A stretch of DNA of 64,000 bases from Candidatus Poriferisocius sp. (lineage in GTDB: Bacteria > Actinomycetota > Acidimicrobiia > Acidimicrobiales > Bin134): the NCBI GenBank assembly GCA_965221865.1, contig OZ244918.1, positions 1,702,816 to 1,766,815 of the forward strand, written 5' to 3'. A program made the translations under genes and the position numbers. Positions within the stretch are counted from its first letter, which is position 1, and each line of letters begins with the position of its first letter. Shown piece after piece: positions 3,699 to 63,900 of the stretch. The notes under the pieces are model-generated. The model made no database searches. It had not been told where the DNA came from and saw only the letters and a program-made list of their open reading frames with translations.

Positions 3699-4029
3699 CT
3701 TATTTAGCAGTAATTTTTTGTCCCAGTTGCCAAACCCAATCAGGCGCATTTATAGCGTCATGGTCGCATAAAGCGTTAACTGCCATAGCGATCCGTGTCA
3801 GATCGTGGCGGCGCGGCGTGTGAAACGATGCCACCACCGATGTCGCTGCGGTGGTATTTTCATACTTATTACTCTATGAGCGTGATCTGTGTGCGATCAT
3901 TGCTTGCACAGTTCGCGAAGGTCAACCACACGACCACGCATATCGTTATTACGCATCAGCTCAGGAGTATCAGCAGCTGTGATAGTAGGAACAAACACCA
4001 CACTGACACAGGAGGCTCACCCAAACACG

Positions 4030-7176: not shown

Positions 7177-7236
7177 TACACACCAGCCCTCAGCACAGCA
7201 TTACCGCCACGGATACACTCTTTGACCTGCATGTGA

Positions 7237-7941: not shown

Positions 7942-8216
7942 CGGCTCACATAGCCAAAACAACCAACTCAACAAACTGTCAGTACCTAATAAACCGGCGC
8001 CCCTACTGTAAACACGTTCCATTGCAGCATTCAAAACCTCACACGGCAGCCGCCCAAACAATTCCAGTCTCAAGTTCTCAGTCAATAGCGACTCTTTCTC
8101 GGATTCCGGCAAAAACACCGGAACTAACTATCTCAGACCACACCCTTCACACAGACAATCTGACAGTCTCCCAGCAAGCATTTTCGACATGCTTTAACCT
8201 TTGAATAAATTGGGTA

Positions 8217-36676: not shown

Positions 36677-37855
36677 ATGACAGTATCAGAATCTCAAGTA
36701 ATCCTATTAAGGGTTTCTGGTCCCGATCGCCCGGGCCTGTTTGCAGGGGTTTTAGGGGTGCTTATCGAGGGTAAAGCTCAAATTCAAGACGTTGAGCAAG
36801 TTGTTATTCGCCGTCAGCTCACACTGTGTCTGGTGCTTGAGGTTCCTAGGGGCCAAGATATTCTCAAAGACTTACTTTTGTTTGGCTGGGAAAACGATGT
36901 AGCTGTGGACTTTGAGGTGGTAGATCCCACCCCTTCAGCCAACTTGGGCGCTCACGCTGTGACTGTTTTAGGCCGTGAACTAACACCCGCGATGCTAGCT
37001 GCCACTGCTACTGCTATAGCTAACGGGCAAGGCAACATTAGGCGGATTGTAAGGCTATCGCGTCATCCCATTTACAGTTATGAGCTGTTGGTAGAGGGTG
37101 GTGATGGTGCTGTACTTCGTCAAAACCTTTTAGCGGTGGCGGGCGCTAACCATGAGTTTGATGTAGCCATCCAGCGGGAAGGGTTAGCCCGGCGCGCCAA
37201 GCGGGTAGCGGTGTTAGATGTGGATTCAACCTTGATTCAGGACGAGATGATCGACTTGTTGGCAGCTGAGGCTGGTTGCGTGAAGAAGTGTCAAACGTTG
37301 ACTGCACAAGCAATGCGTGGGGAGATTGATTTTGAGACTGCTCTGCGTGAACGGGTGCGCTTGTTGGCAGGCTTACAAGAAGCCGACTTAGATCGGGCTT
37401 GGGCACAGGTGAGGTTAACCCCAGGGGCACGAACTTTTTTGACCACCTTGAAGCGCTTAGGGTTTGCGGTGGCCATCGTAAGCGGCGGTTTCACACGATT
37501 TTGCAATCGCCTCAAAGAAGAGTTCGAACTCGATCATGCTTATGCCAACGTCTTAGAGATGGTAGACGGACGGCTTACTGGCAACTTAGAGGGGACTATA
37601 GTAGATCGACCCCGCAAAGCCGACTTACTAAAGCAGATTGCAGCTAGTGAAGGTGTTTCGCCTGAGCAGGTTGTTGCAGTGGGAGACGGTGCCAACGATA
37701 TAGATATGCTTACTGTAGCTGGGTTGGGCATAGCATTTAATGCTAAGCCTAAGGTGCGCGAAGCAATAGAAACAGCTGTGAACGTGCCGCATCTAGATGC
37801 TATTTTGTTTTTGCTGGGGGTTAGTCGCCAAGAACTAGAGGCCGAGGGCATCTAA
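36677..37855 (+). CDS. serB: Phosphoserine phosphatase SerB with N-terminal ACT domains
   Basis: HAD motifs VLDVDSTLI and GDGANDIDM, with ACT-like N-terminal repeats. ATG 36677 is preferred over TTG 36659. Confidence 0.85.
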   Translation: MTVSESQVILLRVSGPDRPGLFAGVLGVLIEGKAQIQDVEQVVIRRQLTLCLVLEVPRGQDILKDLLLFGWENDVAVDFEVVDPTPSANLGAHAVTVLGRELTPAMLAATATAIANGQGNIRRIVRLSRHPIYSYELLVEGGDGAVLRQNLLAVAGANHEFDVAIQREGLARRAKRVAVLDVDSTLIQDEMIDLLAAEAGCVKKCQTLTAQAMRGEIDFETALRERVRLLAGLQEADLDRAWAQVRLTPGARTFLTTLKRLGFAVAIVSGGFTRFCNRLKEEFELDHAYANVLEMVDGRLTGNLEGTIVDRPRKADLLKQIAASEGVSPEQVVAVGDGANDIDMLTVAGLGIAFNAKPKVREAIETAVNVPHLDAILFLLGVSRQELEAEGI

Positions 37856-37865
37856 ACCGGCCTGT

Positions 37866-38771
37866 TTAGTCACCTTGTTCGCGTAGGAAATCTTCGATCT
37901 GAGTCACAAGTGTGCTGGGGTCTGCGGTACGCATTTGTTCTAGGTTTTTATTTTCGGCAACGGCCTCGTCGTAGTTTGCTTCAAGCGTTGCTAAGTATTC
38001 GGCAGTGTCATCAGATTGCGGGATTAGGTTGGATACGCGTTTTTCATAGTTTTTGGCTAGTTTCTTAAGTTCTGCTGTGTTAGGTGTTATGTCTAAAATC
38101 CTGCACAAGTTTTCAATAAGGCCGAGAGATGCTTTTGGGGAAGGAACTTCGGAAGCATATCCGGGCACTGCAGCCCATAGCGAAGCTGTTTGCAGACCTG
38201 CTTCTACACAGGCACTGTTGAGGACTCCCACAATGCCGGTAGGTCCTTCGTAGCTAGATCTTGGCAGGCTTAGTTGTTCGGCCAGTTTTGCGTCTGGGCT
38301 GCTGCCGTAGATTACCGAGGGTCGAGTGTGAGGTATGTCGGCCAATAGTGATCCTAGCGTTATTATCAGTGGGCTGTTGATGCGTCGTGCCATTGTGATG
38401 ATCTCTTGAGTGTATGTACGCCACTTGAACTGTGGTTCGGTGCCAACCAATATGGCTAGATCGGTGTAAGACAGGTTGTGCGGCTTGTCAGCTTGAGGTA
38501 TTTTGCAAATCAAGGTGGCGGCTATGAGATTGTTATTAGGCCAGCTTAGGTAGCGGGAGCCGTCTTTATTTAGGTGAATAAGAGGGCGTGTTTCACTGAA
38601 ATCGTAAAATGGTTCTGGATCAAGAGTAGCGAGTAGTTTTGCTTTACACCGTTTGGTTAACCAGTTGAGGGCGCTTGATGCAGCATCTCCAGCATCATTC
38701 CAGCCGGTAAATGCCACTAGAAGGGTTGGTTGAGTTTGGTTCGGGTTTTTTAGCCAAGTGATTTTGCTCAC
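37866..38771 (-). CDS. PAC2 (proteasome assembly chaperone 2-like) family protein
   Basis: LLVAFTGWNDAGDAAS motif, about 300 aa. Confidence 0.8.
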   Translation of the reverse strand: MSKITWLKNPNQTQPTLLVAFTGWNDAGDAASSALNWLTKRCKAKLLATLDPEPFYDFSETRPLIHLNKDGSRYLSWPNNNLIAATLICKIPQADKPHNLSYTDLAILVGTEPQFKWRTYTQEIITMARRINSPLIITLGSLLADIPHTRPSVIYGSSPDAKLAEQLSLPRSSYEGPTGIVGVLNSACVEAGLQTASLWAAVPGYASEVPSPKASLGLIENLCRILDITPNTAELKKLAKNYEKRVSNLIPQSDDTAEYLATLEANYDEAVAENKNLEQMRTADPSTLVTQIEDFLREQGD

Positions 38772-43696: not shown

Positions 43697-43860
43697 GCCC
43701 TAAAGACTACACCCAATTGACAGACTTGCTAAAGAGCAGTGTATTTACAAATAGGGGGGGGGCAGCTCACTGTTGAGTTTTTTCTTATGATTATGGTGGT
43801 GTTGTTGGTTGGGGGTGGGGTTGTGGTATGCTTTTTGGATGCGTTTTTTCGGGTTTTTAG

Positions 43861-46800
43861 TTGGTGGTGTTGTGTGTGGGTTTGCGCGTCTTGTTGCTGT
43901 TGTGGGGGGGGGGGGGGGCAGGTTTGGTGAGGTGTCTGAGGTTGGGTGGTTGGTTGCGTAAGGTTTTGCGCGTGCGGGGGTTTGTTGCTGCGGCACTGGC
44001 CGCGGTGTTGTTTGGGGTGTTGTTTGGGGTGTTGGCGCCTGGTTCTGTTGGGGCGCAAACTTCGTCTGTGGTGTCTTCTACTGGTGATAGTGCGGTGGAG
44101 GTAGGCGAGGGTTCCGTGGCTGTTGTTGGGTTTAGTGTGTCGCCTCCGGTGGATTCGGAGGTGTGGCTTCGGTTTTGTTTTGAGAGTTCTTTAGCTGATT
44201 CTAATTTTTCTAATCTGCAGACTCAAATTGGTAATATGAACGTGTCTTTGGATAATAATGGTTGTTTTGATGGCCAGACGGTAACTGTTACCGTGGCCGG
44301 GGCGACGACTCAGTCAGCTACTATTAGGTTTCAGCCTTTGACTAATACGGTGGATGATCTTGATGAGGTTGTTACTGTTACGGTGAGTGAGGATCCTGAT
44401 AATCCGTTGCCTGATGGTGTAAGTATCGATGCTGAGGCTGATTCGGTGTCGAGGAAGATTGTGGATGAAGATCCGACGGTGGTGTCGTTGGCTCGTTCGG
44501 GTTCGGGGGCGATCACCGAAGGCGGGTCAGCGGAGTTAACGGTGAGTTTGGGTCGTGAGCTTGTTGCGGGTGAGATGGTGGGTGTGCCGTTGGCTATTAG
44601 CGGTACGAATGTGACGACCGCGGACTATGATTTGGTGTTGAAGGAAGGACAGGGGCTCAACACTGGCGTTGAGTTGTCGGGTGTGTCAACAACCGAACCG
44701 CATTTGAGTTTTTCTGGTGCTGGCGCGCAGACAGCAACTTTGCTGCTGACAGCGTTGCTAAATAATGATACGGGTGCTGAAACAGTAACAGTCGCGTTGG
44801 GGCCTGATGATGCGACTGCTAACGGTTTTGATCGCCCAGCGTTAGAGACGAACGTAAGTGGCGGTGTTAACCGGTCAAGCACGCAGAATAGTGTGAATGT
44901 GACAGTGAACGATCCTGCTGCGCCTGCTGCGCCTAGGTTATCGTTGGCTCAAGCTGGTGATGGGCAGGTGTATTTGTCGTGGGCTAATCCGGTTAATAGT
45001 TTGATTACTGGTTATGAGTTTCAACGCCGCCCAAGCGGCGGTGAGTGGGGTTCAGCGAAAGGGATTGTTGGTAGTAACGCTAATACCATTACTTATGTGG
45101 TAACCGGTCTCACTAATGACACGGCTTACACTTTCCGGGTGCGCGCTGTGTCTGGTAATACGGATGGGGCGTGGTCGGATGCGTCTGCTGCTGTGACACC
45201 AACGTCTGCTTCTACTGCTAGACCGGCTGTTCCAACGAATTTGGCGGCTGTTGCCGGTGACTCACAAGTAGTGTTAACGTGGGATAACCCGGGTAACACG
45301 GCGATTACTAGTTATGAGGTTCGTCAAAGAACTGGGTCCGCTGATTGGGGTACGTGGGCTGCTATTGCTTCTAGCAGCGCTACTACTGTTACCCATACTG
45401 TTACCGGGTTAACTAACGGTGTGACATATCAGTTTCAAGTACGTGCCGCTACTGGAAACCAAGACGCGTTGAAAAGTTTAACGCCAACAGATTTTTTCGC
45501 TGAAGCTACCCCCAGACCGGCACCACCAACGTTGCTGGTGTCGTCAAGGTCTGCGTTGCGGGTGCCTGAGGGGACGACAACTTTAGGGTATAATATTGTG
45601 TTGTCCCGGGCGTTGACGGCTGATGATCCTGCTGTGTTGGAGTTTGAGATAGCTGTTTCTGGCACTGCTACGCGTGGTACGGATTACTCGTTTTCGTCTG
45701 ATTCTAATTTGAGTGGCACAGGTGTGAGTGTGGTTAACACTGCGGGTAAGGGTAACCCTGTGATTCGTATTGACCGGGCCGCGTTCGGTCTCACTCGAAG
45801 AGGTAGCACTGCTGGGTTGATTATCAACGTGAATCCTGATAGTGATACGGAATCGACTGATGAGACGATTGTACTAACAACACCAGGCACCACCCTCACC
45901 CACATGATTTATGATGCGCCTGCGTCTGTTGAAGCTAAGTTCGCTTTAGCTTCTTCTACTTACGCTGAAGGTTTCGGTCCTTTAACGGTTGTTGTTCAAT
46001 TGAGCGCGTTAACAGGCCGGGATTTGGTGTTCCCCATATTATACCCGTCGGCTACTACAACAGCGGTAGCGAATGTTGATTACACACCGGTTAACAGTTT
46101 CACGGTGAAAGCTAATGGGCAGTTAACTCATTCTTTGGTTATTCCTTATGTTGATAATGATGTTGATGAGCCTAATAAAACGTTGTCTGTGATGTTGGGT
46201 GCTGCGCCTTCGGGTGCTACTAAGGCCACAACAGACACTATGACGGTGACTATTGCTGATAATGATGCAACAACAGTCGCTTTAGCGGTGGCAGATACTA
46301 CGTTGCGTGAAGACACTGACACTCGTTTGACTGTCACTTTGAGTCGTGATTTAGTGGCTGGTGAAATAGTGCGGGTGCCTTTGACTGTAAGCGGAACTGG
46401 TGTGACAGCTGATGATTACACGTTGGAGTTGGCTTCGGATGCGGGGTTGAACACGGGTGTTAGGTTGAACATTGCCTCTCCTTTTAGTGCTGCTTCACCG
46501 CAGGTAGTGTTCACAGGTAGTAGCGGCACCGAACAGGTCGCTACTTTGGTGTTGAGCGCTTCCTATGATGCTACCTCTGAGGGTGCGGAGACGTTGCAGG
46601 TTGGTTTCGGTGCGGTTACAAGCAATTTAGCTCACCCGGATCGGTCTACGTTTACTGCTGCTGGTACTACTGCGGGTGCCCCGGTTGATGTGACAGTGAA
46701 TAATTTGGATGCCCCAGCAGCGCCTACAGGACTCGCCGCGACTGCGGGGGACACGCAAGTGTCGCTGGTTTGGGATGATCCGGGTAATAATTTGATTACT

Positions 46801-49800
46801 GGGTACCAGTTTCGTAGAGGTTCAGGTGACCCGTTTAGTTGGGGTACGCATAAAGGTGTTGCTAATAGTGATGCGTCTACTACGTCTTATGTGGTGACGT
46901 CTTTGACTAATAGCACGGAGTACAGTTTTCAGGTACGCGCTTTAATTAACAGTGTGGAAGGTGCTTGGTCTAGCACAGTTAAAGCTACTCCTACGTCTAG
47001 TTCTACTGCTCCTCCGGCTGCTCCTTCAAACGTCACCGCCACAGCTGGTGACACACAAGTAGTATTAACGTGGGCTAACCCAGGTAACGCGGCTATTACC
47101 GGCTATGAGGTGCGCCAGCGTGCCGGGTCTTCTGGTAGTTGGGGTTCGTGGGCTGCTATTGCTTCAAGCAGCGCTACTACTGTTACCCACACTGCAACCG
47201 GGTTAACTAACGGCATTGAGTATAGTTTTGAGGTGCGCGCGGTTGCGGGCACAACACAAGGCGCAGCGTCGGTGACAGTAACCGCGACGCCGATGATTGA
47301 ACCGCCTATTTTGAATCTTTTTCGGCGTCCCCCAGCTAGGTTGCCTGAAGGTACAATAACCGATACCAATTTTGATTTCAGGTTGTCCCGGGCGTTGACT
47401 TCAGATGATCCTGCTTTAGTGGATTTGGAAGTAGCAGTTTCGGGTACTGCTACGCGTAACGTTGATTATCAGTTTTTTAGTAGTGGAACGGTTGCGGGTG
47501 TGTCTGTGTTGAACACAGCCGGTACAGGTAATCTTGTGCTTCGCATTAATCGGGCGACGTTCGGTACTACCAGTCAGGCCGTGTCGGTGAAGTTGGGTAT
47601 AAGAGTTCTGCCAGACAACACGGTGGAGTCGTCTGATGAGACGATTATTCTCACACCAGCGGGTGGTAGCGCGCGTACTTTTAGTGTTTATGATGCGCCA
47701 GCGTCGGTGGAAGTCAATGTTGAACAAAGCAGGCTTCGTGCTTCAACTCTTGAGAACCGTTCTTTGCATTTAACCCTTGTTTTAGACGCTGCTACTGGTA
47801 AGGATTTAGTGTTTCCTGTTTCGTATTCTGGTACAGCAACATCAGGGTCAGATTACACACCGGTTGATAGTTTCACGGTGAAAGCTAACGGGCGGTTAAC
47901 TCATTCTTTGGTTATTCCTTATGTTGATGATGATGTTGATGAGACTAACGAAACGGTGACAGTAATGTTAGGCGACGCCCCGTCTGGTGCTACTAAAGGT
48001 AGTACAGACACTGCGACTTTCACGATTGTTGATAACGATGCGACAACAGTGACAATGAAGCTTGCGGGTAGGGCGGGTATTGAAGAAAACACTTCCACTC
48101 AGCTGACAGTGTCATTAAGCCGCGATTTGGTAACAGGTGAGGAGGTTTGGGTGCCGTTGACGGTGTCGGGTACTGGTGTCACGGCAGATGATTACACGTT
48201 TAGTTTAGCTTCAGGTACAGGGTTGAACACTGGTGTCACGTTGAACACTACCGCTCCGTACAGCGCTGCGTTACCGCAGGTTTTGATTACTGGTGGTTCC
48301 GCTGTTGAGCGGTTTGCTACTTTGACTCTCAGCGCAGCTGATGATAGTACAGCAGAGAACACAGAAACATTGTCAATTGGTTACGGTAGTGTGGAAAGTA
48401 ATCTTGACCGGTTGGATGCATCTATTTTTTCTACAGGTGGTACTACTACTGCTGGTGCCCCGGTCACAGTTCAGATCAGCGATGAAGCTACTGGACCAAC
48501 GTTGCTGTTCACCAGGACAGGAACAGGGACACGGCTTCCTGAGGGCACAACTCTTGTGGAACACAATTTTGTGTTGTCTCGTCGTTTAAATGGCACTGAT
48601 CCTCAAGTACTTGAATACGAAATCGGGTTGGGTGGCACCGCTACTCGGGGTGCTGATTACACGTTAAGGTTTGTTTCGCAAGCACGCCACTCTGATGGTG
48701 TCACCGTCATTAACACTGCTGGTAGCAGTAATCCTGTTTTGCGTATCAACAGAACAGTGTTTGGCAGCAGGTTAACCAGGGGTACTGTTGGTTTAGTTTT
48801 GAGTGTAACAGCCGATAACACTGTTGAATCAGCTGCTGAAACAATTACTTTAACAACATCAGGCGGCAGCCTGGCTTACACGATTTATGATGCGCCTGCG
48901 TCTGTTGAAGCCAAGTTCACACGAGCCGCTTACGGGTATCAAGAAGGCAATAGAGTCTTTACAGTTGTGATTCAATTAAACGAACCAACAGGCAAAGATT
49001 TAGTGTTCCCCTTATCGTACCCGCAGCCTACAACAGCGGTATCAGGGGTTGATTACACACCGGTTGATAGTTACACTGTGAAAGCTAACGGGGAGTTAAA
49101 TCACGCAATCTCATTCCTATACAATGATAATAACCTTGATGAACTAACTAAAACATTGACTGTGATGTTAGGCGCAGCACCTGATGGTGTTACTAAAGGC
49201 ACCCCAGACACCGCAACAGTGACTATCTATGATAATACTCCCACAGCAGTTACTTTAGCCGTAAACGGTTCGTCTTCAATTGAAGAAGACACTAGTACTC
49301 AGCTCACTGTGACTTTGGGTCGTGATCTAGTGGCCGGTGAGATAGTGCGGGTGCCTTTGACTGTGAGCGGTACGGGTGTGACAGCCGATGATTACACGTT
49401 GGAGTTGGCTTCGGATGCGGGTGTGAATACTGGTGTAACTTTGAACACTGCTAACCCGTATAGTGCTGCTGAACCCCAAATAGTGTTCACTGGGGGCAGT
49501 AGTGTTGAGCGGGTAGCTACTTTAGTGTTAAAAGCGGTTGCTGATAATGATGATACTGAAACTTCTGAAACTATGACTATTAGTTTCGGTTCGGTTACAA
49601 GCAACTTAGATCAAATAAACCCGTCTGTTTTCGATGGGAGTGGTACTGCTGCTGGTGAGCCGGTGGAAATACTATTAGGCGCAGCTGTTTTGACTTTGTC
49701 TGTTGATAGTGGCACTGCTAATCCCACGGAGGTGGTTGAAGGCGAGTTGTTGATGATTACTGTTACGCGTAGCCAAGCTAACCGGACTGGTGCTGATATT

Positions 49801-51861
49801 AATGTTCCGTTCCGTTTGTTGATCGATGATGTAGGTTTAGTGGGTTTAGCTGATTTCACTATTCACAATGGTGATACTACTAGTTCAGCTAGTTTGAAAG
49901 CTCCTAACGACCGGTATGATGAACCAACTAAACAAGCATGGACAGCGGAATTGAACACTGCGTTGCTACCCGAAAATCATGTTGCTGATACATCTCGGGT
50001 GGCATTTACTGTTACAGATAATGATCCGACCACGGTTACTCTCAACGGGCTTGCAGGTGATATCGCTGAGGACACGGTGAAACGATTTACAATCACCCTT
50101 AACCGCGGGTTAGTAGCCGGTGAAACCTTGCCTGTACCTTTGGTTTTTGGTGGTACTGCTACCCGCAACGCGGATTACACTACTGCTTGCCCTGATCCTT
50201 TGCCGGTGGGAATACAATGCAATAATCTTGATACCGCTGAGACGCCGACTGTAACATTCACTGGCCCTCAACAAGGTGTAACAGCCCGTTCGGTTACTTT
50301 AACAGTCACCGCCCAAGCAGACCTATACACTGAAAACGACGAAACTCTGCGCATCGCTTTAGCACCCCTAAACGCTGATTCTGGTGACGGTTTAGGCGGC
50401 GGCGCGGTTGCTGTCAACGATTTTGATGCGTTCAACATCACAGACACCACCGACCCAGCAACCGCAATACAACCACCCCCAGAAGACCCTGAAGAACCTG
50501 TTGATCCTGAACCTGAAACAGTACCAACAACGCCCATATATCAAGTACCCACCAGCCTCATAGCTGATGTGCGCGGTTACGCTGCTGAAACTCACAATGG
50601 TGCCGCGCATGTGCGCCGTTGGCAACAAGTCTTGTTAGCGTTCGGTGACACCGTTAATGGGTTCACCGGCGCTCCGATCACTCTCACCGAAGCGCGAACC
50701 TATGCGCAACAGTTCTGGAGTGTTCGCTGGGATCCGGTAGTTGAAGCACTACAACAACTCGCCAACAACCCCCAACCCCAACCCACCGCAACACCTCAAC
50801 CCACTCCAACATCCACACCAACACCATCTGTTTACACCGTGCCAGCCAGCCTCATAGCTGATGTGCGCGGTTACGCTGCTGAAACTCACAATGGTGCCGC
50901 GCACGTGCGCCGTTGGCAAAGAGTCTTGCTCGCGTTCGGTGAAGACGTGCCAGGCTTCACTGGCACCCCGATCACCCTCACTCAAGCGCGAACCTATGCG
51001 CAACAGTTCTGGGGCAGCCGCTGGGATCCTGTAGTTGAAGCATTGCAACAACTCGCCAACAACCCGCCACCCCAACCTAACGACCCGTCGCCTAACAATC
51101 CGCCGCCTAACAATCCTTCAGTTGACCCACAGCCAAAACCTGTGCTGCCCAGAATCGGTGTTACAGCACCCACCGATATCACCGAAGGCCAAACCGCCGA
51201 TTTCACATTCACCGCTGTGTCCGCCCCCGCAACCCCGCTCACTGTCACTGTCAACATAATCACAACAGGTGATTATGGCATCACCGCTGGCAGCCGCACC
51301 GTGACCATAGACACCAACGGCACCGCCACACTGTCACTAGCTACCATTGGTGACAGCGTTGACGAACCAAACGGCACTATCACCGTCACACTTACCACCA
51401 GTAACACCTATAATGTTGACTCTGCTGCTGCGACTGCGACGGTTACTATCGCAGACGACGACGCACCAGTACAAACCACAAGCACACCTATTATTTCTAT
51501 AGCCGACCAAACCATCACCGAAGGCACCTCCTGTCGTACCCCCGCCCCCTGGTCCTGCCTCAACTTATACCCTGTCACTGTCACTTTGAACCAACCCCAC
51601 CACCAAAGCGTGTGGGTCTCATTCACCATCACCCAACTCGGACAAGGAACAGGCTATGCCACCGCGAACCAAGACTTCGCCGCACGCGACCGAAGAAGCT
51701 TCATCATCGCCGCAGGCCAAACCACCAAAAACATATACGTCAACATCAAAGACGACAACACCAAAGAACCCGACGAAACCTTCCAAATCACCCTACACAA
51801 CCCCCTCCGCGGACAAATCGGCGACGGACAAGCCACCATCACCATCAAAGACAACGACTAA
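43861..51861 (+). CDS. Giant secreted Calx-beta-like/FN3 repeat protein (2666 aa as listed; likely start GTG 43972)
   Basis: Signal-peptide-like RGFVAAALAAVLFGVLFGVLAPGSVGA-QT. Contains two FN3 pairs, many Calx-beta-like modules (..DNDATTV.., VD.DVDEPN.TL.V.L), three super-repeats and two 98-aa C-terminal modules. An AAGG lies 8 nt before 43972. Confidence 0.85.
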   Translation: MVVLCVGLRVLLLLWGGGGAGLVRCLRLGGWLRKVLRVRGFVAAALAAVLFGVLFGVLAPGSVGAQTSSVVSSTGDSAVEVGEGSVAVVGFSVSPPVDSEVWLRFCFESSLADSNFSNLQTQIGNMNVSLDNNGCFDGQTVTVTVAGATTQSATIRFQPLTNTVDDLDEVVTVTVSEDPDNPLPDGVSIDAEADSVSRKIVDEDPTVVSLARSGSGAITEGGSAELTVSLGRELVAGEMVGVPLAISGTNVTTADYDLVLKEGQGLNTGVELSGVSTTEPHLSFSGAGAQTATLLLTALLNNDTGAETVTVALGPDDATANGFDRPALETNVSGGVNRSSTQNSVNVTVNDPAAPAAPRLSLAQAGDGQVYLSWANPVNSLITGYEFQRRPSGGEWGSAKGIVGSNANTITYVVTGLTNDTAYTFRVRAVSGNTDGAWSDASAAVTPTSASTARPAVPTNLAAVAGDSQVVLTWDNPGNTAITSYEVRQRTGSADWGTWAAIASSSATTVTHTVTGLTNGVTYQFQVRAATGNQDALKSLTPTDFFAEATPRPAPPTLLVSSRSALRVPEGTTTLGYNIVLSRALTADDPAVLEFEIAVSGTATRGTDYSFSSDSNLSGTGVSVVNTAGKGNPVIRIDRAAFGLTRRGSTAGLIINVNPDSDTESTDETIVLTTPGTTLTHMIYDAPASVEAKFALASSTYAEGFGPLTVVVQLSALTGRDLVFPILYPSATTTAVANVDYTPVNSFTVKANGQLTHSLVIPYVDNDVDEPNKTLSVMLGAAPSGATKATTDTMTVTIADNDATTVALAVADTTLREDTDTRLTVTLSRDLVAGEIVRVPLTVSGTGVTADDYTLELASDAGLNTGVRLNIASPFSAASPQVVFTGSSGTEQVATLVLSASYDATSEGAETLQVGFGAVTSNLAHPDRSTFTAAGTTAGAPVDVTVNNLDAPAAPTGLAATAGDTQVSLVWDDPGNNLITGYQFRRGSGDPFSWGTHKGVANSDASTTSYVVTSLTNSTEYSFQVRALINSVEGAWSSTVKATPTSSSTAPPAAPSNVTATAGDTQVVLTWANPGNAAITGYEVRQRAGSSGSWGSWAAIASSSATTVTHTATGLTNGIEYSFEVRAVAGTTQGAASVTVTATPMIEPPILNLFRRPPARLPEGTITDTNFDFRLSRALTSDDPALVDLEVAVSGTATRNVDYQFFSSGTVAGVSVLNTAGTGNLVLRINRATFGTTSQAVSVKLGIRVLPDNTVESSDETIILTPAGGSARTFSVYDAPASVEVNVEQSRLRASTLENRSLHLTLVLDAATGKDLVFPVSYSGTATSGSDYTPVDSFTVKANGRLTHSLVIPYVDDDVDETNETVTVMLGDAPSGATKGSTDTATFTIVDNDATTVTMKLAGRAGIEENTSTQLTVSLSRDLVTGEEVWVPLTVSGTGVTADDYTFSLASGTGLNTGVTLNTTAPYSAALPQVLITGGSAVERFATLTLSAADDSTAENTETLSIGYGSVESNLDRLDASIFSTGGTTTAGAPVTVQISDEATGPTLLFTRTGTGTRLPEGTTLVEHNFVLSRRLNGTDPQVLEYEIGLGGTATRGADYTLRFVSQARHSDGVTVINTAGSSNPVLRINRTVFGSRLTRGTVGLVLSVTADNTVESAAETITLTTSGGSLAYTIYDAPASVEAKFTRAAYGYQEGNRVFTVVIQLNEPTGKDLVFPLSYPQPTTAVSGVDYTPVDSYTVKANGELNHAISFLYNDNNLDELTKTLTVMLGAAPDGVTKGTPDTATVTIYDNTPTAVTLAVNGSSSIEEDTSTQLTVTLGRDLVAGEIVRVPLTVSGTGVTADDYTLELASDAGVNTGVTLNTANPYSAAEPQIVFTGGSSVERVATLVLKAVADNDDTETSETMTISFGSVTSNLDQINPSVFDGSGTAAGEPVEILLGAAVLTLSVDSGTANPTEVVEGELLMITVTRSQANRTGADINVPFRLLIDDVGLVGLADFTIHNGDTTSSASLKAPNDRYDEPTKQAWTAELNTALLPENHVADTSRVAFTVTDNDPTTVTLNGLAGDIAEDTVKRFTITLNRGLVAGETLPVPLVFGGTATRNADYTTACPDPLPVGIQCNNLDTAETPTVTFTGPQQGVTARSVTLTVTAQADLYTENDETLRIALAPLNADSGDGLGGGAVAVNDFDAFNITDTTDPATAIQPPPEDPEEPVDPEPETVPTTPIYQVPTSLIADVRGYAAETHNGAAHVRRWQQVLLAFGDTVNGFTGAPITLTEARTYAQQFWSVRWDPVVEALQQLANNPQPQPTATPQPTPTSTPTPSVYTVPASLIADVRGYAAETHNGAAHVRRWQRVLLAFGEDVPGFTGTPITLTQARTYAQQFWGSRWDPVVEALQQLANNPPPQPNDPSPNNPPPNNPSVDPQPKPVLPRIGVTAPTDITEGQTADFTFTAVSAPATPLTVTVNIITTGDYGITAGSRTVTIDTNGTATLSLATIGDSVDEPNGTITVTLTTSNTYNVDSAAATATVTIADDDAPVQTTSTPIISIADQTITEGTSCRTPAPWSCLNLYPVTVTLNQPHHQSVWVSFTITQLGQGTGYATANQDFAARDRRSFIIAAGQTTKNIYVNIKDDNTKEPDETFQITLHNPLRGQIGDGQATITIKDND
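43904..43918 (+). repeat. Homopolymeric G15 tract in the giant gene 1 leader / extreme 5' end
   Basis: Counted directly. Lies 54 nt upstream of GTG 43972, where a signal-peptide-like sequence starts. A G9 run is at 43754-43762. Confidence 0.95.
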
Positions 51862-51882
51862 CCCCGTTGGGGGTTAGTCGTT
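51853..51882. terminator. 13-bp perfect palindromic hairpin between convergent genes (bidirectional terminator candidate)
   Basis: aacgactaacccc-gttg-ggggttagtcgtt. Both stop codons (51859-61 and 51874-76) lie inside the stem. There is no U-tract. Confidence 0.5.
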
Positions 51883-52278
51883 GGGGCGTGGTAGTCCGGC
51901 GGCGGTTTCGAGGCGAGCTAGGCGGTCGGTGTGGTCGAGGAGTATCGCGTTGATTTCAGCAAATCCTGCCTGCATTTCTGTGCGTACGCTGCTGATTTCG
52001 GTGCGTAGTTCGGTGCTTAGTTCTGTGCGTACGTTGTTGATTTCGGTGCGTAGTTGAGTGTCGAGGTTGTCTATGCGGTTGCCGAGTGAGTTGATTTGTG
52101 AGATGATTATGCTTAACAGCACAGATACTAGGGTAACTAGTAGTGTGCCGACCACCGAGCTGAGGGATGGGAGCCATTTACGTGTTGTGCTTTGTGTGTC
52201 ACCGGTTTGAGATTGCGCGGTGTCGCTCATCTCGACAGTGGTTGTTTCGGTTGGCACGTTTTGTATTATAGCAGCCAT
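51874..52278 (-). CDS. Membrane-anchored coiled-coil protein, unknown function
   Basis: AGGAGG SD, one TM (VVGTLLVTLVSVLLSIIIS), and a repeated RTEINNVRTELSTELRTEISSVRTEM. Confidence 0.65.
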   Translation of the reverse strand: MAAIIQNVPTETTTVEMSDTAQSQTGDTQSTTRKWLPSLSSVVGTLLVTLVSVLLSIIISQINSLGNRIDNLDTQLRTEINNVRTELSTELRTEISSVRTEMQAGFAEINAILLDHTDRLARLETAAGLPRPND

Positions 52279-52613
52279 CGAACCTCCTAATGCATCGATA
52301 ATTAGAATATATATGTATTATACTTGAAATAGTTTACAAAACTTGAAAACATTTGATTTTTACTTGTTTTGATGAAACATATTCTATAAGCTGCTATCAC
52401 CCTCTAAAACAATGACTGCTTAAACTCTTGCTGTGGGAAATGGGCTGGGCAACTTCTCTCCTCATCCCCTCCCCAAACGTATCCTTCACAAAAAAGGGCG
52501 GTTGACTGTGTTTGCGCAACGCAGCCCACAGCTTGTTGGTGCTAATATGGTAGGGCACATGTCATCTAGCGTTGATGTTGTTATGAAGTGTTTTAAGCAT
52601 TTGGAGGAACTTT

Positions 52614-53456
52614 ATGTCTAATGTAGTGAGAGCCGCAGTTGTGCAGACTGCGTGGACAGGTGATCAAGAGTCCATGATGGAACTGCACGAAAAGTATTTG
52701 GCCGAGGCTGCGGCTGCGGGAACTCAGGTGATGTGCTTTCAAGAGTTGTTCAACGGCCCGTATTTCTGTCAAGTGCAAGAGGCGGACTATTACAGTTATG
52801 CAGAAGCTATTCCCGACGGTCCCACCACTAAGCGTTTTCAAGAACTAGCAGCTAAGCACAACATGGTTCTGGTTTTACCCATGTATGAACAAGAACAGCC
52901 TGGAGTGCTTTACAACACTGCTGCAGTAATCGACGCTGACGGTTCTTATCTGGGAAAATATCGTAAGGTACATATTCCCCATGTGAAAGGCTTTTTTGAG
53001 AAGTTCTATTTTCGCCCGGGCAACCTGGGGTTTCCAGTGTTTGACACCGCAATAGGTAAGGTTGGGGTGTACATCTGTTACGACCGTCATTTTCCTGAAG
53101 GATGGCGAGCTTTAGGTTTAGCCGGTGCACAGGTGGTGTTTAATCCGTCGGCAACTAGCAGAGGGTTGTCCTCATATTTGTGGAAATTGGAGCAGACATC
53201 TTCTGCGGCGGCCAATATGTACTTCGTGGGTGCCATTAACAGGGTGGGTATAGAAGAACTAGGAGACAACGATTTTTACGGCACTTCTTATTTCGCTAAC
53301 CCTCGTGGTGAGTTTGTGGATGATCCAGCGTCGGATCAACATGAGGAGTTGGTGATCCGCGACTTAGATTTTGCGTTGATTACACAGATACGTAATCAGT
53401 GGGCTTTTTATCGAGATCGCCGTCCCGATATGTACGGGCCGCTTGCTCACGCTTAG
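52614..53456 (+). CDS. Carbon-nitrogen hydrolase, beta-ureidopropionase-like
   Basis: Nitrilase-superfamily E-K-C triad context (FQELF, YRKVHIP, ICYDRHFPE). Assignment supported by its neighbours in the pyrimidine pathway. Confidence 0.75.
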   Translation: MSNVVRAAVVQTAWTGDQESMMELHEKYLAEAAAAGTQVMCFQELFNGPYFCQVQEADYYSYAEAIPDGPTTKRFQELAAKHNMVLVLPMYEQEQPGVLYNTAAVIDADGSYLGKYRKVHIPHVKGFFEKFYFRPGNLGFPVFDTAIGKVGVYICYDRHFPEGWRALGLAGAQVVFNPSATSRGLSSYLWKLEQTSSAAANMYFVGAINRVGIEELGDNDFYGTSYFANPRGEFVDDPASDQHEELVIRDLDFALITQIRNQWAFYRDRRPDMYGPLAHA

Positions 53457-58756: not shown

Positions 58757-60900
58757 CGGTGGTTGGGTGGGGTTAGAGTTTTATGTAGGTGTCGGGGTTT
58801 TGGGTGTGTTTTTGCTTTGGGGAACAGATTTTTCGTGTTGTTGATAATTGGGGAACAGATTTTGTTTGTTTGTTTTTATCTGGGTTTTTAGCTTGTTTGT
58901 AAGGGTTTTCTAGTTTTTGTTGTTCCTCGTGGTTTGTTTTCCGTTATCTGTGTGTGTTGGTTGTTTGTTTTTGTAGTTTGTGGGGGTTTGGTGTTTGTTG
59001 GAGGGTAGCTGCTGGGGGTGGTGGGGTTTTGGTGGGGGTGTGGTTGGTTTTTTATTGTTTGTTGATTTTTGTATAGTATATGAATTATGAGTGGTTTGTT
59101 GTTTTGTTTGTTGAGGGGGGGTTTGTGTTTTGATTCTTTGGTGTGCGGGGGGGGGGGCTGGGTTTGTTGTTTGGGGTTGTGTGTGTGGGTTGAGGTGGGG
59201 TTGTGATGTTGGTGGGGGGTTTTTGTTTTAGGGTTGTTTGTGGTTTGGTGGTTGTGTTGGGTTTGTTTGTTTCGGGTTTGGGTGTTGGTGGTGGTGTGGT
59301 TGCGGAGGGGGGTGGTTTTGTGGGGGTGGGTGTGGGGGGTTCTGGTGTTGTTGTGGGGGTGGGTGATGTTGGTGTTGGTGGGGTTTTGGGTGTTGGGGGT
59401 GGGTCTGATTTGTTTTGGGGTTTGGATGGTTTGGAGGGTTTGGAGGGTGTTGGGGGTGGTGTTGGTGTGGTTGGGGGTCGTGTGGGTGGTGGGTTGTTGT
59501 TTGGTGGGGATGGTTTTTTGGATTTGGGTGTGGGTGTGGGTGGGGGTGGGGGTTTTGGTTTTGAGGGGTGTGGGTCTGGGGAATCTGGTGTGGTTGAGGG
59601 TGTTGTTGAGGAGCTTATGTCAGATACTGTTGTGGCGGATAGTGGGTGTGGGTGGTCTGTTGGTTTGTGGGTGAAGCGGGTTGGTGGGGTTGTTGGTGGG
59701 TCTGTGTTGTTGGGGTCTTTGGAGGGTGGGGATTCTTTGTTGTTGGAGGGTGTTGGGGGTCGTGTGGGTGTGGGGCGGTTGGGTGGTGTGGTTCGTAGTT
59801 TTGGGTTTGGTACGCCGTTGGGTGAGTGGGTTTATTTGGTGTTTGTGGGGTCGTCGGGTGGTGTGGGTTTGTTTGTGGATGGGGTGTTGGTGGGTTGGGT
59901 TGGTGGGGGTGTTGGGTTGTCTTTGGGTGTTTTGGGTGGTGGTGTTGGTGGTGTTGGGGGTGTGAGGGCTGTTTTGGATGATTTGCGGGTGTGGGGTCGT
60001 GTGTTGTCTGCGGGTGAGGTGGCGGGGGTGTTTGGGGGGTTTGAGCCGTTGTTGGTGCCTGGTGTTGTTGAGGGTTTGGTTGGGGCTGATGTTGGTGTTG
60101 GGAGTGTTGGGTTGGGGTGGTTAGCGCCTGTTGGTGGTGGTGGGGTTGAGGGGTTTGAGGTGCGTTGGCGTGAGGAGGGTTCGGGTGTGTGGTTGGGTGA
60201 GGGTGTGGTTGAGGTGTCGGCTCAGGGGAAGGGGGAAGAGGGGTATGGTTTTGTGGCCGATGGGTTGGGTGTTGGGGTGGCATATGAGTTTTGGGTGCGT
60301 GCTGTTAATGGTGTGGGTGGTGGTGGTTGGGTTTCTGTTCGGTTTGTTGCGGGTGTTTCGGGGGTGGCTGATGTTGTGAGCGGGTTGAGGGTGTCTTCTG
60401 AGCCGGGTGGGTTTAGGGTTTCGTGGGGTAGGCCTGTTGATGCGGGTGGTTTTGATGTGTCGGGGTTTGAGGTGCGTTACCGGCGTGGTGGTGGTGGTGG
60501 TTGGGTGTCTGAGTTTGTGGGTGACACAGAGCGGGGGTTGGTGGTGGATGGTTTGGTTGTTGGTGGTGCCTATGAGGTGCAGGTGCGGGTTTTGACTGGG
60601 TTTGGTGCGGGTTTGTGGGTGTCTGGGAGGGTTGTTGTGGGTCGTGAAGGTGTTCCGGGTGTTCCGGGTGGGTTGTTGGTTGATGTTGGGGCAGATGGGG
60701 TGGTGTTGTTGTGGGATGCGCCTGTTAGTGATGGTGGTGTTGGGGTTGATGGTTATGAGGTTCGGTATAGGCGGGGCGGGTTTTGGTCTGAGCCTGTTGG
60801 TTTAGAGTCTTGGGTGCGGGGTTATGAGTTTTCGGGTTTGGTGCGTGGTGTGGATCATGTGTTGTTGGTGCGGGCTATAAATGAGCGTGGGCCGGGTTCT
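58757..60900 (+). other. G+T-saturated (A/C-depleted) tract
   Basis: For example, 59281-59400 has 4 A/C in 120 nt. The tract covers 450 nt of non-coding DNA and the first 1.7 kb of giant gene 2. Confidence 0.9.
59147..59157 (+). repeat. Homopolymeric G11 tract 49 nt upstream of the giant gene 2 ATG (plus G7 at 59115-59121)
   Basis: Counted directly. Confidence 0.95.
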
Positions 60901-63900
60901 TGGGCTGGTTTAGAGGTAGGTTTTGGTGTTTCATCTAAACAAGCGTTCACGGTGCCTAGGTTGGTTGGTTGGTTGCCTGGTGATGGGGTGTTCACAGTTG
61001 TTAGGGGTTCACGTGTTGTGATTACGGGTGGTGATACAGCTAGGAGTTGGTCTGAGGATTTCATGTCCACAGTATTAGAAAACGAAGAGGTGGTAGCCGA
61101 TGTTGACAGTGTTTTAGGTGTGAATGTGTTGCAAGCACATTCACAGGTTGTGGGTGTTGCTACTGCTGCGCGTAGGGTTTTACGGGAGGTAGCAGAAAAG
61201 ATAGCTGCCGATTTGGAAGCTGTCACAGGTTTTGATGTGCCTGTGGTGGTGGTTGATGATATTCAAAGTGCGCGTGCTGGTGACATTGTGTTGGATGTAG
61301 CTGATAGTTCGGTTGAAGGGTTGGGGGTGGAAGGTTACACATTGTTTGTGGGTGATGTGGTAAGGATTGTTGGGAATACTTCTACTGGCGTGTTTTGGGG
61401 GTCGAGGTCTTTGCTGCAATTGTTAGCAGCATCTGAAACCGGTTTGGTGGTACCAGCAGGTTCGGTGCGTGATATTCCTTCAGCGGTTAGCGCTGTGAGA
61501 TCTTTGCATTTAGATAAAGCAGCCAGGTTTTACAGTCCAACACATTTACAACAGTTGATCGGGTTGTTGTCTTGGCACAAACTAAACGTGTTACACCTTG
61601 ATTTCACTTTCGCTAATGGTAGATACGATCAAGCGGTTTGGCTTTCGGATTTAGAAAACTTCGCTCGCGACCATCATGTGGCAGTAATCGTTAGCGAACC
61701 GCTTGCCGACACTACACCACCCGCAGAACAAGCAGACAGGCTAGTTGCTGAAAGTTTTGTTAGCAGCGGTGTGGTTGGGAGTGTTGTTGGTGACGGTGAT
61801 GCAGGGTTAGTTGAGAGCACAGTCACACAAGACCGTCAACAATTAGCTAACACTGTGTCTGGTGTGAGCGCGGATCGTTGGGTGAGGGGACACCGTTTTG
61901 TTTTAGGACGTCAACTTGTGTTACCTGATTTAGCGGCTATTCACAGTCTGGCTAGCAAACTGAATGGGCCCGGTGAGGTGGGTGCTGGACTGTTCGTGGG
62001 CGGCCCGTTAGCTTTAGCAGCCACCGACGGGTTCATCAACTATCATTTAGGTTCGTCTTTAGCAGTGCTCGGTGACCGGTTATGGAACGAGCAGGCATCT
62101 AACTGGACAGTCGACGAGTTCCTAACAGCTAAAAACATTATCGGTTCACCGCTCACAACAAAAACCGTTCACAACTCTGAACAACATCGCGGGCTCATAC
62201 ACCACTGGAGTTTCAACAATGTGAAATATTATCAAACCTCTGAAAACACAGCAGATAAGACAAGCTATTTACTAATACCCGATCATACGGGCAGAGCTGA
62301 CGGATATGCGATCGGTGACCCACAAAAATTTCCTCGGCTAAACGCTGACAGCCGTCTTTTAGGTCAAAGCATAGAATTCGGGCACAGCGAACAAGTCCTA
62401 AACCAAGACGGCATAGAACTAGGCGCCACAGACTTACCAGTACCATGGACCCTGTCAGCGTGGGTGAAACGAACCGGCAACCATCCCGGAGCGACACTAC
62501 TAAACTCAATTAACGGGGCGATACGCCTACAACAACACAACAAACCCGTAATAGGCCTCCTAGACCGCACAAACACACCATACACATACCACAACTTTGA
62601 CTACACCCTGCCACTAAACAAATGGGTACACCTAACACTCATCGCCACCCAACAAGGCACAGTACTATACGCTGATAGCCGTCTTGTCGGCTCAGTGCCC
62701 AAGTCGATTTCGTTGCCGCTACAACAAATCGGGTTTGAAAACCTCATCGGCCTAAAAGCCAAAATAGATGATATCAAAATATGGGGGCAACCACTTGTTT
62801 CTGCTGTCAACCAAGTTATATCCACCCCAACAACACCCATTGATCAACCCATAGTGCCCGAGCTGGTTGCTACACCACCATTAGAACCCGGTTTAGTAGC
62901 AGTGTCGCTGGATGTGAACAACTCGGGCACAGTCACAGAGGGTGGCACGTTGACGGTCACTGCGACATTAGCGGCAGCGGCCGCAGCGAACGTTACGATT
63001 CCAGTGCGCGTTGCCTCCGGTGGCACAGCAGGAGCTGGTGATTACACACTTTCTGCTTCGGGGAACATTACTATTAGCAGCGGTTCCACATCAGGCACTT
63101 TGACGTTTAATGCTACCGATGACAGTATTGATGAAAACAATGAGACGCTAACATTAGAGTTCGGTACGCTACCTGCCGGTTATCGTGCTGGCAGCCCGTC
63201 AAGTGTGAACATCACCATAACAGACAACGACACAGCGGGTGTGACCATCACCGAGACCGGTGACAGCACATCGGTAGCAGAAAACGCTGGTACTGACACT
63301 TACACCGTCGTGTTAGACACCCAGCCAACCCATGATGTGTCGGTGGCGGTCACATCAACAGGGCCTGTGGCGTTTGATGGACCAGATGATGCGACCGCGT
63401 ACACCACAAGTGAAACATTAACGTTCACACCAACTAACTGGGCGACAGCGCAGACGATCACAGTGCAAGGCCAAAACGATGATGTGGACAACACTGGCGG
63501 GTCGCGTAGCGCGACACTCTCTCATGATGTGTCGTCCAGCGACACGGCTTATAACGCTATAGCTGACCAAGATGTCACCGTAACGGTGACCGATGATGAT
63601 GCGACGCCTGAGATTGATTTAAGTGTGAACCCGGCAACGGTGGCAGAAGATGCTGGCGCGACCACGGTGACAGTTACCGCCACGGTTGATGACGCGACCA
63701 TCAGATTTGACGCGGCGAAAACGGTAGCAGTGTCGGTTACAGGGTCGGGTGAGGCTAACCGGGTCGGGTTCACAGCGGTCAACAACTTCAACATTACTAT
63801 CGCTGCTGGCCAACCGTCGGGGAGTAACACGTTCACGCTCACACCAGATGATGACAGCACTGATGAGACCGACGAGACAATCACCATATCGGGCACTTCA

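Follow-up and report, generated by a model that had tools for sequence, protein, structure and literature searches.

What makes the base composition of a bacterial DNA strand reverse abruptly at a palindrome shared by two convergent genes? The question is raised by a stretch of 64 000 nucleotides from Candidatus Poriferisocius sp. (Actinomycetota; Acidimicrobiia; Acidimicrobiales; contig OZ244918.1, positions 1 702 816–1 766 815; hereafter the window, whose own numbering is used throughout), in which a giant gene on the + strand (giant gene 1) and a convergent gene for a protein of 134 amino acids terminate in the two arms of one palindrome near position 51866. A preliminary description of this sequence had observed that the C+A-rich 3′ end of the giant gene gives way there to a G+T-rich strand, and had read this as a single local hypermutation. 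Here, the two convergent transcription units are shown to share one bidirectional terminator-type hairpin, each RNA being C+A-rich at its 3′ end. The giant gene is shown to possess a three-part architecture (a 5′ poly-G/C run, a G+T-rich head and body, and a C-rich, G- and T-poor tail that runs to a hairpin) which is long-standing in sponge-associated Acidimicrobiia and is found mainly in one multicopy family of large secreted Calx-beta/fibronectin type III (fn3) proteins. The bias of the tail may be caused by mutation on one strand or by selection on the RNA; the account preferred here, tentatively, has two layers, the G+T tracts being ascribed to strand-asymmetric deamination and the tail to selection at the level of the RNA.

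The reversal itself is confirmed and lies far beyond chance. When the (G+T)−(A+C) skew of the 250 nt to the left of each position of the window is compared with that of the 250 nt to the right, the largest upward step of the 64 kb (+0.89, the standard deviation of the statistic being 0.148) falls at 51866, in the loop of the palindrome common to the two genes, as the preliminary description had it. At a resolution of 50 nt the skew ranges from −0.44 to −0.64 over 51701–51850, is +0.20 in 51851–51900 and attains +0.4 to +0.5 farther right; the G+T fraction is 0.36 in 50440–51866 and 0.66 in 51874–52278, compared with 0.54 in the entire window. The count of 26 G or T among the 120 nt of 51721–51840 proved exact. 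The palindrome had been given as 13 bp centred at about 51867; the flip does sit in its loop, but the arms are longer, with 14 nt each (51852–51865 and 51870–51883) that are 100% complementary and enclose a loop of 4 nt. The arms hold the stop codons of both open reading frames (ORFs), both proteins end in Asn-Asp, and the 121-nt segment around the palindrome is predicted to fold with about −46 kcal/mol on either strand, giving a stable hairpin in both transcripts. No Rfam family was found in 50000–53000. An assembly or platform artefact was ruled out, as four HiFi assemblies and the SPAdes-style NODE contigs of a related metagenome-assembled genome (MAG) concur; the latter (L023, L043 and L044, with equivalent tails) presumably derive from short reads. 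The same locus was available in three other independent assemblies, namely the sister strain (L001/L004; 98.7% identity), the low-coverage L002 and L003 (∼99% in housekeeping genes). The skewed tracts are common to all of these strains and thus predate the strain split, while the palindrome is perfect in the window strain only, owing to a C>G change at 51871 that is peculiar to it.

Just past the stop codon, the final ∼10 nt of the family gene (ACAACGACTA) are found again, as a direct copy in one paralogue (L009, ∼7327–7365) and as an inverted copy in the window (51847–51883), where this copy gives rise to the palindrome and provides the convergent small gene with its Asn-Asp-stop ending. This repeat suggests how the hairpin may have originated.

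Giant gene 1 occupies 43861–51861 of the + strand as an ORF of 2666 codons (2639 amino acids as called in the sister strain) and encodes fn3 and Calx-beta domains behind a signal-peptide-like N-terminus. Its third-position skew turns negative from about 50160; in the C+A-rich tail (51100–51866, core 51679–51858) it lies between about −0.2 and −0.5 and reaches −0.87 in the final 60-codon window. Within the last 60 codons, all 42 synonymous choices between C and T are C and all 17 between A and G are A, whereas C/(C+T) and A/(A+G) are 0.25 and 0.35 in the interior of the gene and 0.39 and 0.46 in 11 ordinary + strand genes. The difference in codon usage between the terminal and the internal domains, which had been pointed out earlier, is therefore extreme. 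The 4-fold sites of the last 126 codons (51481–51858) consist of C 0.68, A 0.19, T 0.10 and G 0.03. These codons belong to the last two β-sandwich domains (51133–51858) of a C-terminal module conserved in the family, of which the terminal one (amino acids 150–242 of the segment, ∼51580–51858) ends in ATITIKDND and is indeed homologous to Calx-beta: it scores 43.2 bits with Pfam PF03160, whose gathering cut-off is 27 (E = 4.6e-11), over positions 28–119 of the 119 in the profile. Amino-acid composition was ruled out as the cause of the bias because synonymous and 4-fold sites carry it. With synonymous sites saturated and with the bias extending, in paralogues, into the 3′ untranslated spacer, it is shown to act on the nucleic acid and not on the protein.

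The tail is not peculiar to this locus. The C-terminal 467 amino acids of giant gene 1 match full-length proteins of 478–774 amino acids in this and related genomes, all of which end in ATITIKDND; the relatives are the closest species representative, Ca. Poriferisodalis sp. OZ244864, and, farther away, Ca. Aldehydirespirator and an Acidimicrobiaceae MAG. This family has at least 11 paralogues per genome, a genome scan gave 65 loci and the amino acids of the terminal motif are invariant across it. The earlier idea that ATITIKDND had been derived by G→A and T→C changes from the internal motif ATVTIADND is thereby displaced, the motif being instead the near-invariant C-terminus of a multicopy family. 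The 11 paralogues of OZ244864 have third-position skews of +0.54, +0.32 and −0.71 in the first 60, middle and last 60 codons, respectively, compared with +0.01, −0.02 and −0.07 in 58 neighbouring genes, and their mean compositional gradient in the tail extends over ∼1.6 kb. By eye, C and A predominate in the first ∼20–45 nt past the stop, as far as an apparent hairpin; in the first 40 nt the measured fractions are C 0.41, A 0.27, G 0.20 and T 0.12. At 4-fold codons shared between paralogues, purine/pyrimidine discordance is 0.23 even in the last 60 codons, so that each copy keeps its tail bias independently. The bias can therefore no longer be viewed as a local event at this palindrome; it is family-wide and is maintained in diverged paralogues and across at least three named lineages.

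The same divergence bears on the proposal that the C-terminal module and the small gene were spread by gene conversion or recombination and carried their own composition with them. Several observations are in its favour. The paralogues L005 and L006 of Ca. Poriferisodalis (7018–7377 and 6994–7353, respectively), which lie 150 kb apart, are 92% identical over their 3′ 2.2 kb and differ at one position in the last 360 nt where 29 differences were expected (P = 5e-12), suggesting recent gene conversion or constraint at the nucleotide level; the repeated last ∼10 nt of the family gene (direct in L009, inverted in the window) and 40 clustered differences at 51385–51751 in L002 point the same way. 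The tails, however, are as diverged at synonymous transversion sites as the remainder of the module (0.23 versus 0.23–0.33), the bias is graded from the stop without a boundary at the module edge and the origin of the composition is left unexplained, which makes this proposal quite improbable. The 40 differences in the L002 patch comprise 17 G>A or T>C changes, eight reverse changes and otherwise transversions and indels, and ∼4 sites differ in the other 8 kb (∼0.05%); the patch is either an allelic replacement or an error of low coverage.

In Aldehydirespirator, the family genes have heads, bodies and mostly tails, and those of the COS4 MAG have tails without G+T bodies. No comparable pattern was found in large Calx-beta genes sampled from 13 or more other phyla, among them an Anaerolineae gene ending in ITITIKDNDD and genes of other MAGs that are likely, from their taxon names, to be sponge-associated. 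In ordinary genes of both genomes, the stops are marked by neither a C>G signal nor a dip towards C+A. Literature searches yielded no account of tracts of this type, nor of Ca. Poriferisodalis.

A biased C-terminal domain followed by a stem-loop recalls the target sites of diversity-generating retroelements (DGRs), and rewriting of the 3′ end by a reverse transcriptase, with cDNA errors turning the − strand G+T-rich, was considered accordingly. The bias does cover the C-terminal domain, starts its gradient from the 3′ end and, immediately behind the coding sequence, stops at a stem-loop whose loop has 4 nt. Yet the window contains no second (template) copy of 51100–51866 and, among its 30 ORFs scanned, no reverse transcriptase; A is enriched, opposite to the adenine mutagenesis of DGRs, and the residues of the terminal motif are invariant in the family. 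Contradicted on its defining features, this candidate is very unlikely.

On the right of the palindrome, the convergent ORF (51874–52278, − strand) encodes a predicted membrane-anchored coiled-coil protein of 134 amino acids that has no family match in Pfam or NCBIfam. Its coding strand is C+A-rich, with third positions at −0.63 and synonymous choices of 0.84 for C/(C+T) and 0.82 for A/(A+G), and its antisense forms a G+T-rich flank on the + strand (51870–52250) that peaks beside the palindrome and fades rightwards. Both convergent genes are thus C+A-biased on their coding strands and most strongly close to the palindrome, in agreement with the preliminary description. The signature in the small gene is of the transition type: its 4-fold sites contain 33 purines against 34.6 expected, a preserved fraction, and all five composition-changing polarised changes among strains in 51867–52300 are towards G or T. 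A homologue of this gene lies at a different locus of OZ244864 (L012, 1524–1997), with a third-position skew of −0.57, 4-fold A, C, G and T of 0.32, 0.46, 0.14 and 0.09 (baseline 0.15, 0.36, 0.32 and 0.17) and a purine fraction of 0.46 versus 0.47 in the baseline; no family-gene tail was identified beside it. The right side thus represents a transition-type tract of the small gene family, the left side a C-enrichment of the large Calx-beta family. As the genes convergent to family tails in OZ244864 are without G+T conversion, the flip at 51866 is a juxtaposition and not a rule.

Proteins of 141 and 156 amino acids correspond to the small protein in relatives (L001/L004, L003) through in-frame insertions of at least 21 nt; the length differences fall in the 12/21-nt periodic repeat region of the gene, 51976–52060 (window site 51938). 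A second convergent pair of the window, an HAD phosphatase-like gene and a PAC2-family gene, has both stops inside a short palindrome at 37840–37870 (CTAAAC-CGGCCT-GTTTAG), and the right-hand gene of this pair is moderately C+A-coded (third positions −0.32).

Could the convergence itself have produced both flanks? Polymerases passing the hairpin would make untranslated antisense RNA, with R-loops and deamination of the displaced strand on either side, and RNA consisting of G and U only would be unable to load Rho, making the process self-reinforcing. The polarity fits both sides of the hairpin, the right flank carries a pure transition signature, the second convergent pair (37855/37866), with overlapping stops in its short palindrome, has the same sign, and tails gain strength when a convergent gene follows (p = 0.02). 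The last 60 codons of ordinary genes also show a weak trend at convergent junctions (skew −0.20 versus −0.01, p = 0.019), which is gone once normalised to the rest of the gene (p = 0.24). Against these points, the downstream gene is co-directional in seven of the 11 paralogues and the tail is present nonetheless, the 4-fold sites of the tail are enriched in C instead of being converted to A+C by transitions, and the genes convergent to tails in OZ244864 are unconverted. Read-through of this kind is therefore an unlikely cause.

At its other end giant gene 1 is G+T-rich, as stated earlier, the fraction being 0.82 in 43780–44200. The head (43771–44600, + strand) has a sharp onset and a slow decay, its third-position skew declining from +0.8 to a level of about +0.4–0.5 that persists until ∼48300. 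A run of nine G (43754–43762) lies just 5′ of the head and is one G shorter in strain L001; within the early coding region, a run of 15 G (43904–43918) has three additional G in L001, with the frame intact. The strongest tract of the window (58758–61500) belongs to a second giant gene (11 004 amino acids in the sister strain; LamG/fn3/GH20), of which it spans a leader of ∼450 nt and the first ∼600 codons; a run of 11 G (59147–59157) lies at the 5′ end of this gene. There, the + strand reaches 93% G+T per 200 nt and decays only past ∼61000, and 99% of the 4-fold sites are G or T across 1.8 kb. The reading frame is preserved, inter-strain indels inside the ORF all being multiples of three, and relics of fn3 and LamG domains are still detectable within the tract. 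The encoded N-terminus consists nearly entirely of Gly, Val, Leu, Trp, Phe, Cys and Arg, and the protein segments hit by G+T tracts give an impression of decay and not of diversification. Along the edge of the tract, the G or T base occupies 47 transition sites in the window strain and its sister, versus 23 in L003 (p = 0.006); the process that generates G+T is thus not extinct. An apparent divergence of 7% inside the tract, with many G↔T differences, is perhaps inflated by misalignment, the sequence being composed of two letters and containing indels, and was not relied on.

The runs at the 5′ ends of the giant genes are a family trait. Each of the 11 family genes with a captured 5′ end has a run of 10–18 G or C there, and the three G runs at the giant-gene 5′ ends of the window vary in length among strains. 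The runs of nine, 15 and 11 G hence appear to combine the 5′ homopolymer and the length polymorphism of contingency loci, and the giant family genes are probably phase-variable contingency genes, although contingency loci are not known to us for a polar G+T/C+A composition. Runs of 9–18 G or C occur almost nowhere else in the loci (the window and the 5′ ends of L006–L016). In family genes the onset of the bias lies on average ∼200 nt upstream of the start codon, from where it decays downstream; no C+A tract precedes the heads, which are one-sided. A consensus promoter scan found no promoter at the tract starts; a TTGACA/TATTTA site with a 19-nt spacer, seen by eye before the run of nine G, is a lead only. 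The 13 family loci of OZ244864 (within L005–L020) lie on the + strand between 0.96 and 1.86 Mb and on the reverse strand at 0.1–0.68 and 2.44–2.53 Mb, as if they were co-directional with replication from an origin near 0.8 Mb, a position that is itself inferred.

Two IS30-like insertion-sequence (IS) remnants (∼130–1010 and 2549–3700) have a G+T-rich left part and a C+A-rich right part. The second retains terminal inverted repeats (TIRs) of 86 bp with 12 mismatches, all 12 being C/T or A/G and all 12 having the G or T base in the right-end copy when read inward; the ends-inward polarity that the preliminary description had ascribed to these remnants is accordingly borne out as inward G+T enrichment through transitions. 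The first copy lacks TIRs and an internal 137 nt, a third, less converted left-end fragment lies at 977–1060, the transposase motif PGHWEGDLI has decayed to PGH*QDDLI and no intact copy was present among the 765 kb of loci searched.

These tracts also decide the standing of codon selection, in which codons ending in C or A would be decoded fast (Watson–Crick pairing with G34/U34 tRNAs) and those ending in G or T slowly by wobble, giving a slow body and a fast end. The skew of body and tail is chiefly at third positions, as this predicts. However, the skew extends to the untranslated spacer past the stop and to the 5′ leader, conversion also affects first and second codon positions in heads and apparently, by eye, in the L006 tail, the IS remnants and their TIRs carry the same bias, and genes expected to be highly expressed (rpoB, rpoC and, by position, the elongation-factor genes) have no preference for C or A endings. 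The explanation is largely refuted by the noncoding tracts and is scarcely credible.

Complete conversion of A to G and of C to T is expected to leave the purine fraction at 4-fold sites unchanged, and the head of gene 2 (59206–60993; A 0.02, C 0.01, G 0.40 and T 0.58, versus 0.20, 0.21, 0.22 and 0.36 in ordinary + strand genes) preserves it, with 165 purines observed and 180 expected. The fraction is kept likewise in the 5′ heads, the gene body and the 134-amino-acid ORF (|z| < 1.6), and the family gene bodies of OZ244864 have 3590 purines where 3360 were expected. C→T conversion extends farther than A→G, which agrees with the order of deamination rates. No dependence on the neighbouring base was detected, T/(C+T) at 4-fold sites of family gene bodies being 0.73 after C, G or T, and an enzymatic deaminase with a neighbour preference (APOBEC-, AID- or DddA-like) was rejected on that ground.

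The tail behaves otherwise. Its 4-fold purines are depleted (z = −3.1 in the last 126 codons, z = −3.6 in 51151–51858), those of the OZ244864 tails number 145 against 214 expected, and A, at 0.19, is not raised, unlike in a pure G→A and T→C conversion. The supposed mirror symmetry of head and tail as products of one process consequently fails: the tail loses purines, whereas the heads, the body and the 134-amino-acid ORF preserve them. This weakens a common mutational origin, with the reservation that in a long-saturated tract rare transversions set the A:C ratio. Support for a single local hypermutation is only partial. Upstream of the tail, at 50261–51150, lies a stretch with 4-fold G 0.37 and T 0.13 whose purine excess (z = +4.4) fits neither the transition model nor C-enrichment. 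It spans two tandem copies of a family domain of ∼75 amino acids (YxVPxSLIADVRGYAAE...FWSVRWDPV; 50549–50783 and 50842–51077, + strand, 87% identical), which matched no Pfam or NCBIfam family.

A single polar process is nevertheless still to be weighed. It would start from seeds (hairpins or palindromes, IS ends and 5′ poly-G runs), the strand running 5′ to 3′ away from the seed turning G+T-rich, possibly because fill-in or restart synthesis of low fidelity, following breaks or nicks, makes G:T mispairs, or because a displaced or newly made strand is deaminated; the palindrome would then have seeded one tract, with the tail on one arm and the right flank on the other. In this form it would amount to a natural, locally targeted, strand-polar and transition-only hypermutation of phase-variable giant surface-protein genes and IS elements in sponge-associated Acidimicrobiia, with kilobase tracts of more than 90% G+T. 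All large upward steps of the window (51866, 58758, 3695, 977, 43771 and 2561) do have a sharp onset followed by gradual decay, the step considered here lies exactly within the hairpin loop, its arms have length scales similar to those of the 5′ heads, IS ends (expected cut sites of the transposase) are G+T-rich inwards purely by transitions, and a mild G+T richness resumes past tail and hairpin in several paralogues. In the L006 lineage, the recent changes of the tail comprise 11 transitions to A or C (seven T>C and four G>A) and none to G or T; polarised changes among the close strains, which are too few in number, hold no such G→A and T→C excess in the tail of giant gene 1, contrary to what had been anticipated. 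To our knowledge, Actinobacteria lack MutS/MutL mismatch repair, which was counted in favour of this process. At 4-fold sites, however, the composition of the tail does not mirror that of the G+T tracts; the neighbouring genes, many presumably with terminator hairpins of their own, have on average no comparable pattern, and the convergent neighbours of family genes in OZ244864 are unconverted. In addition, the homologue of the 134-amino-acid gene in L012 is C+A-coded at another locus with no family tail identified adjacent to it, the heads have no C+A tract upstream, and a Pfam scan of 30 window ORFs revealed neither an error-prone polymerase nor a deaminase or reverse transcriptase. Both the process and its targeted form we regard as possible but doubtful.

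The RNA sequences on either side of the hairpin suggest a function for the tail. Criteria for Rho-dependent terminators comprise a stretch of at least ∼78 nt with C>G and with C every 11–13 nt, followed within 150 nt by a GC-rich pause hairpin with a loop of 4–8 nt (PMC6407284). In the RNA of giant gene 1, the best 78-nt window (51731–51808) has 31 C and six G, a C/G ratio of 5.2, and a chain of seven C spaced at 11–13 nt; in that of the 134-amino-acid gene the best window (52033–52110, − strand) has a ratio of 4.0 and a chain of seven regularly spaced C. Ratios of that order occur in just 1.8–3.1% of all 78-nt windows. Such a stretch is thus present on both strands, as is the hairpin, with its 14-bp stem and 4-nt loop, and no pairing is predicted for the ∼70 nt that lead up to the hairpin. 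The greater strength of tails facing a convergent gene is also in keeping with such a function, and NusG is among the proteins encoded by the window. Pairing of the G+T-rich head of the RNA with its C+A-rich tail was also considered; the best 5′–3′ match did not exceed that of shuffles.

In the two-layer account, which we prefer but rate below an even chance, the G+T tracts (the giant-gene heads and bodies, the + strand over the 134-amino-acid gene and the inward IS ends) would have arisen by transition-only conversion of one strand, C→T and A→G, through deamination of C and, more slowly, of A on a strand repeatedly left single-stranded. This would be the non-template or displaced strand of units whose RNA often goes untranslated: giant genes with poly-G/C runs of the phase-variation type may often be transcribed without being translated, which would favour R-loops (a link that we infer), and the transposase genes of the IS elements would likewise be poorly translated. 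The tail would be kept C-rich, G-poor and free of structure as a loading site for Rho directly before the pause hairpin, and a special site of this kind may be needed as the C-depleted RNA of the body would give Rho nothing to bind. With these two layers, the flip at 51866 is a family-type tail abutting a transition-converted convergent gene.

A number of observations weigh against this account. Ordinary genes carry no C>G or C+A signal at their stops, and the reason why only this family should have one is not apparent. The gradient of the tail, ∼1–1.6 kb, far exceeds a Rho site of ∼80 nt. The C-rich stretch lies entirely within a translated ORF, and ribosome-free RNA for Rho to bind is lacking on both strands, the C-rich windows being inside ORFs whose stops are in the hairpin arms. 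In L005 and L006, by-eye comparison with the consensus suggests that the tail bias has changed many amino acids (Val→Ile, Ala→Thr, Asp→Asn, Gly/Ser→Asn), and the L006 transitions to A or C look more like mutation pressure than weak selection; symbiont populations are presumably small, which favours the former over the latter. Tails persist, although weaker (−0.4 to −0.5), where a co-directional gene begins within 31–89 nt. In a long-saturated tract, the purine loss could also accompany a mirror-image mutational origin. Finally, the G+T enrichment does not follow expected expression, since rpoB, rpoC and the ORFs at elongation-factor positions (assigned by position) have third-position skews of just +0.11 to +0.24.

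Comparison with known systems places these features in perspective. The hairpin region resembles Rho-dependent terminators (PMC6407284) in its C/G ratios of 5.2 and 4.0, in the 11–13-nt spacing of C, in a strong hairpin that has a loop of 4 nt and follows within 150 nt for either RNA and in the predicted lack of pairing ahead of it. It differs from them in that the tail is 10–20 times the length of a Rho-utilization (rut) site, is graded and lies within a translated ORF, also depletes U, saturates synonymous sites and apparently alters amino acids in paralogues, and in that the signal is absent from ordinary genes of these genomes.

Transcription-associated asymmetry consists of an excess of C→T (in mammals also of A→G) on the non-transcribed strand and leads to a G+T excess on the coding strand (PMC2031905, PMC2927911, PMC10030826). 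The G+T heads and bodies resemble it in sign, in being produced by transitions only, in context independence and in an onset upstream of the start codon; the C→T plus A→G excess at unchanged purine content that is expected of non-template deamination is seen in them, while the tail, of opposite sign, is disqualified. Scaling with transcription level was not observed, rpoB and rpoC, which are expected to be highly expressed, having ordinary skew. The amplitude far exceeds that of transcription-associated asymmetry, G+T attaining as much as 93% within 200 nt and 99% of the 4-fold sites over 1.8 kb, and the effect is restricted to one gene family and IS elements.

A strand almost free of G and T at silent sites is otherwise encountered in vertebrate mitochondria, in which the displaced heavy strand is deaminated while single-stranded and the silent sites of genes in light-strand sense are rich in A+C along a gradient. 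The changes there are likewise transitions only, with C→T the first to saturate, and the bias declines away from a start point. The tracts described here are instead local (0.4–5 kb), numerous and of both polarities on one chromosome, and we know of no strand-displacement origin at their sites. Immunoglobulin hypermutation and class switching, in which AID acts on R-loops, are similar in starting near the promoter, in polarity, in a length of 1–2 kb and in G runs on the non-template strand, and MutaT7-type polymerase–deaminase mutators with dual deaminases likewise yield C→T and A→G on one strand. Unlike in these systems, there is here no hotspot context, no deaminase gene was found among the scanned ORFs of the window, and the composition is an evolutionary equilibrium and not somatic diversification. 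Repeat-induced point mutation (RIP) of fungi also converts copies of transposable elements heavily by transitions, but RIP affects the two strands alike with a preference for CpA and depends on duplicated DNA in the course of a sexual cycle, whereas the conversion considered here is strand-polar and context-independent, includes A→G and also hits apparently functional genes. To phase-variable contingency loci the likeness lies in the G or C run found in all 11 family genes with a captured 5′ end and in run lengths that vary among strains.

Elsewhere in the window, the 275-nt intergenic spacer at 7942–8216, which follows a DUF4143 gene, has a + strand rich in C and A (A 0.32, C 0.32, G 0.14, T 0.21) and terminates at a sharp skew step at 8200; a run of nine C (7243–7251) is located in the preceding spacer.

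Strand asymmetries in bacteria are usually faint and are taken to be by-products of replication or transcription; here they come near saturation over kilobases, change sign inside single genes and are limited to one probable contingency-gene family and IS elements in one symbiont lineage. Whichever the cause, gene finders, codon-usage measures and detectors of horizontal transfer would misread such regions. If the cause is mutational, these genomes would offer a natural case of localised directional hypermutation in bacteria that is approachable by population sequencing of sponge symbionts, and polar hypermutation, if true, would provide bacteria with a counterpart to somatic hypermutation, kataegis or RIP. 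Should the tail be under selection, the very long genes of this family would consist of Rho-proof bodies followed by an oversized terminal entry site for Rho, which would bear on how giant genes are transcribed.

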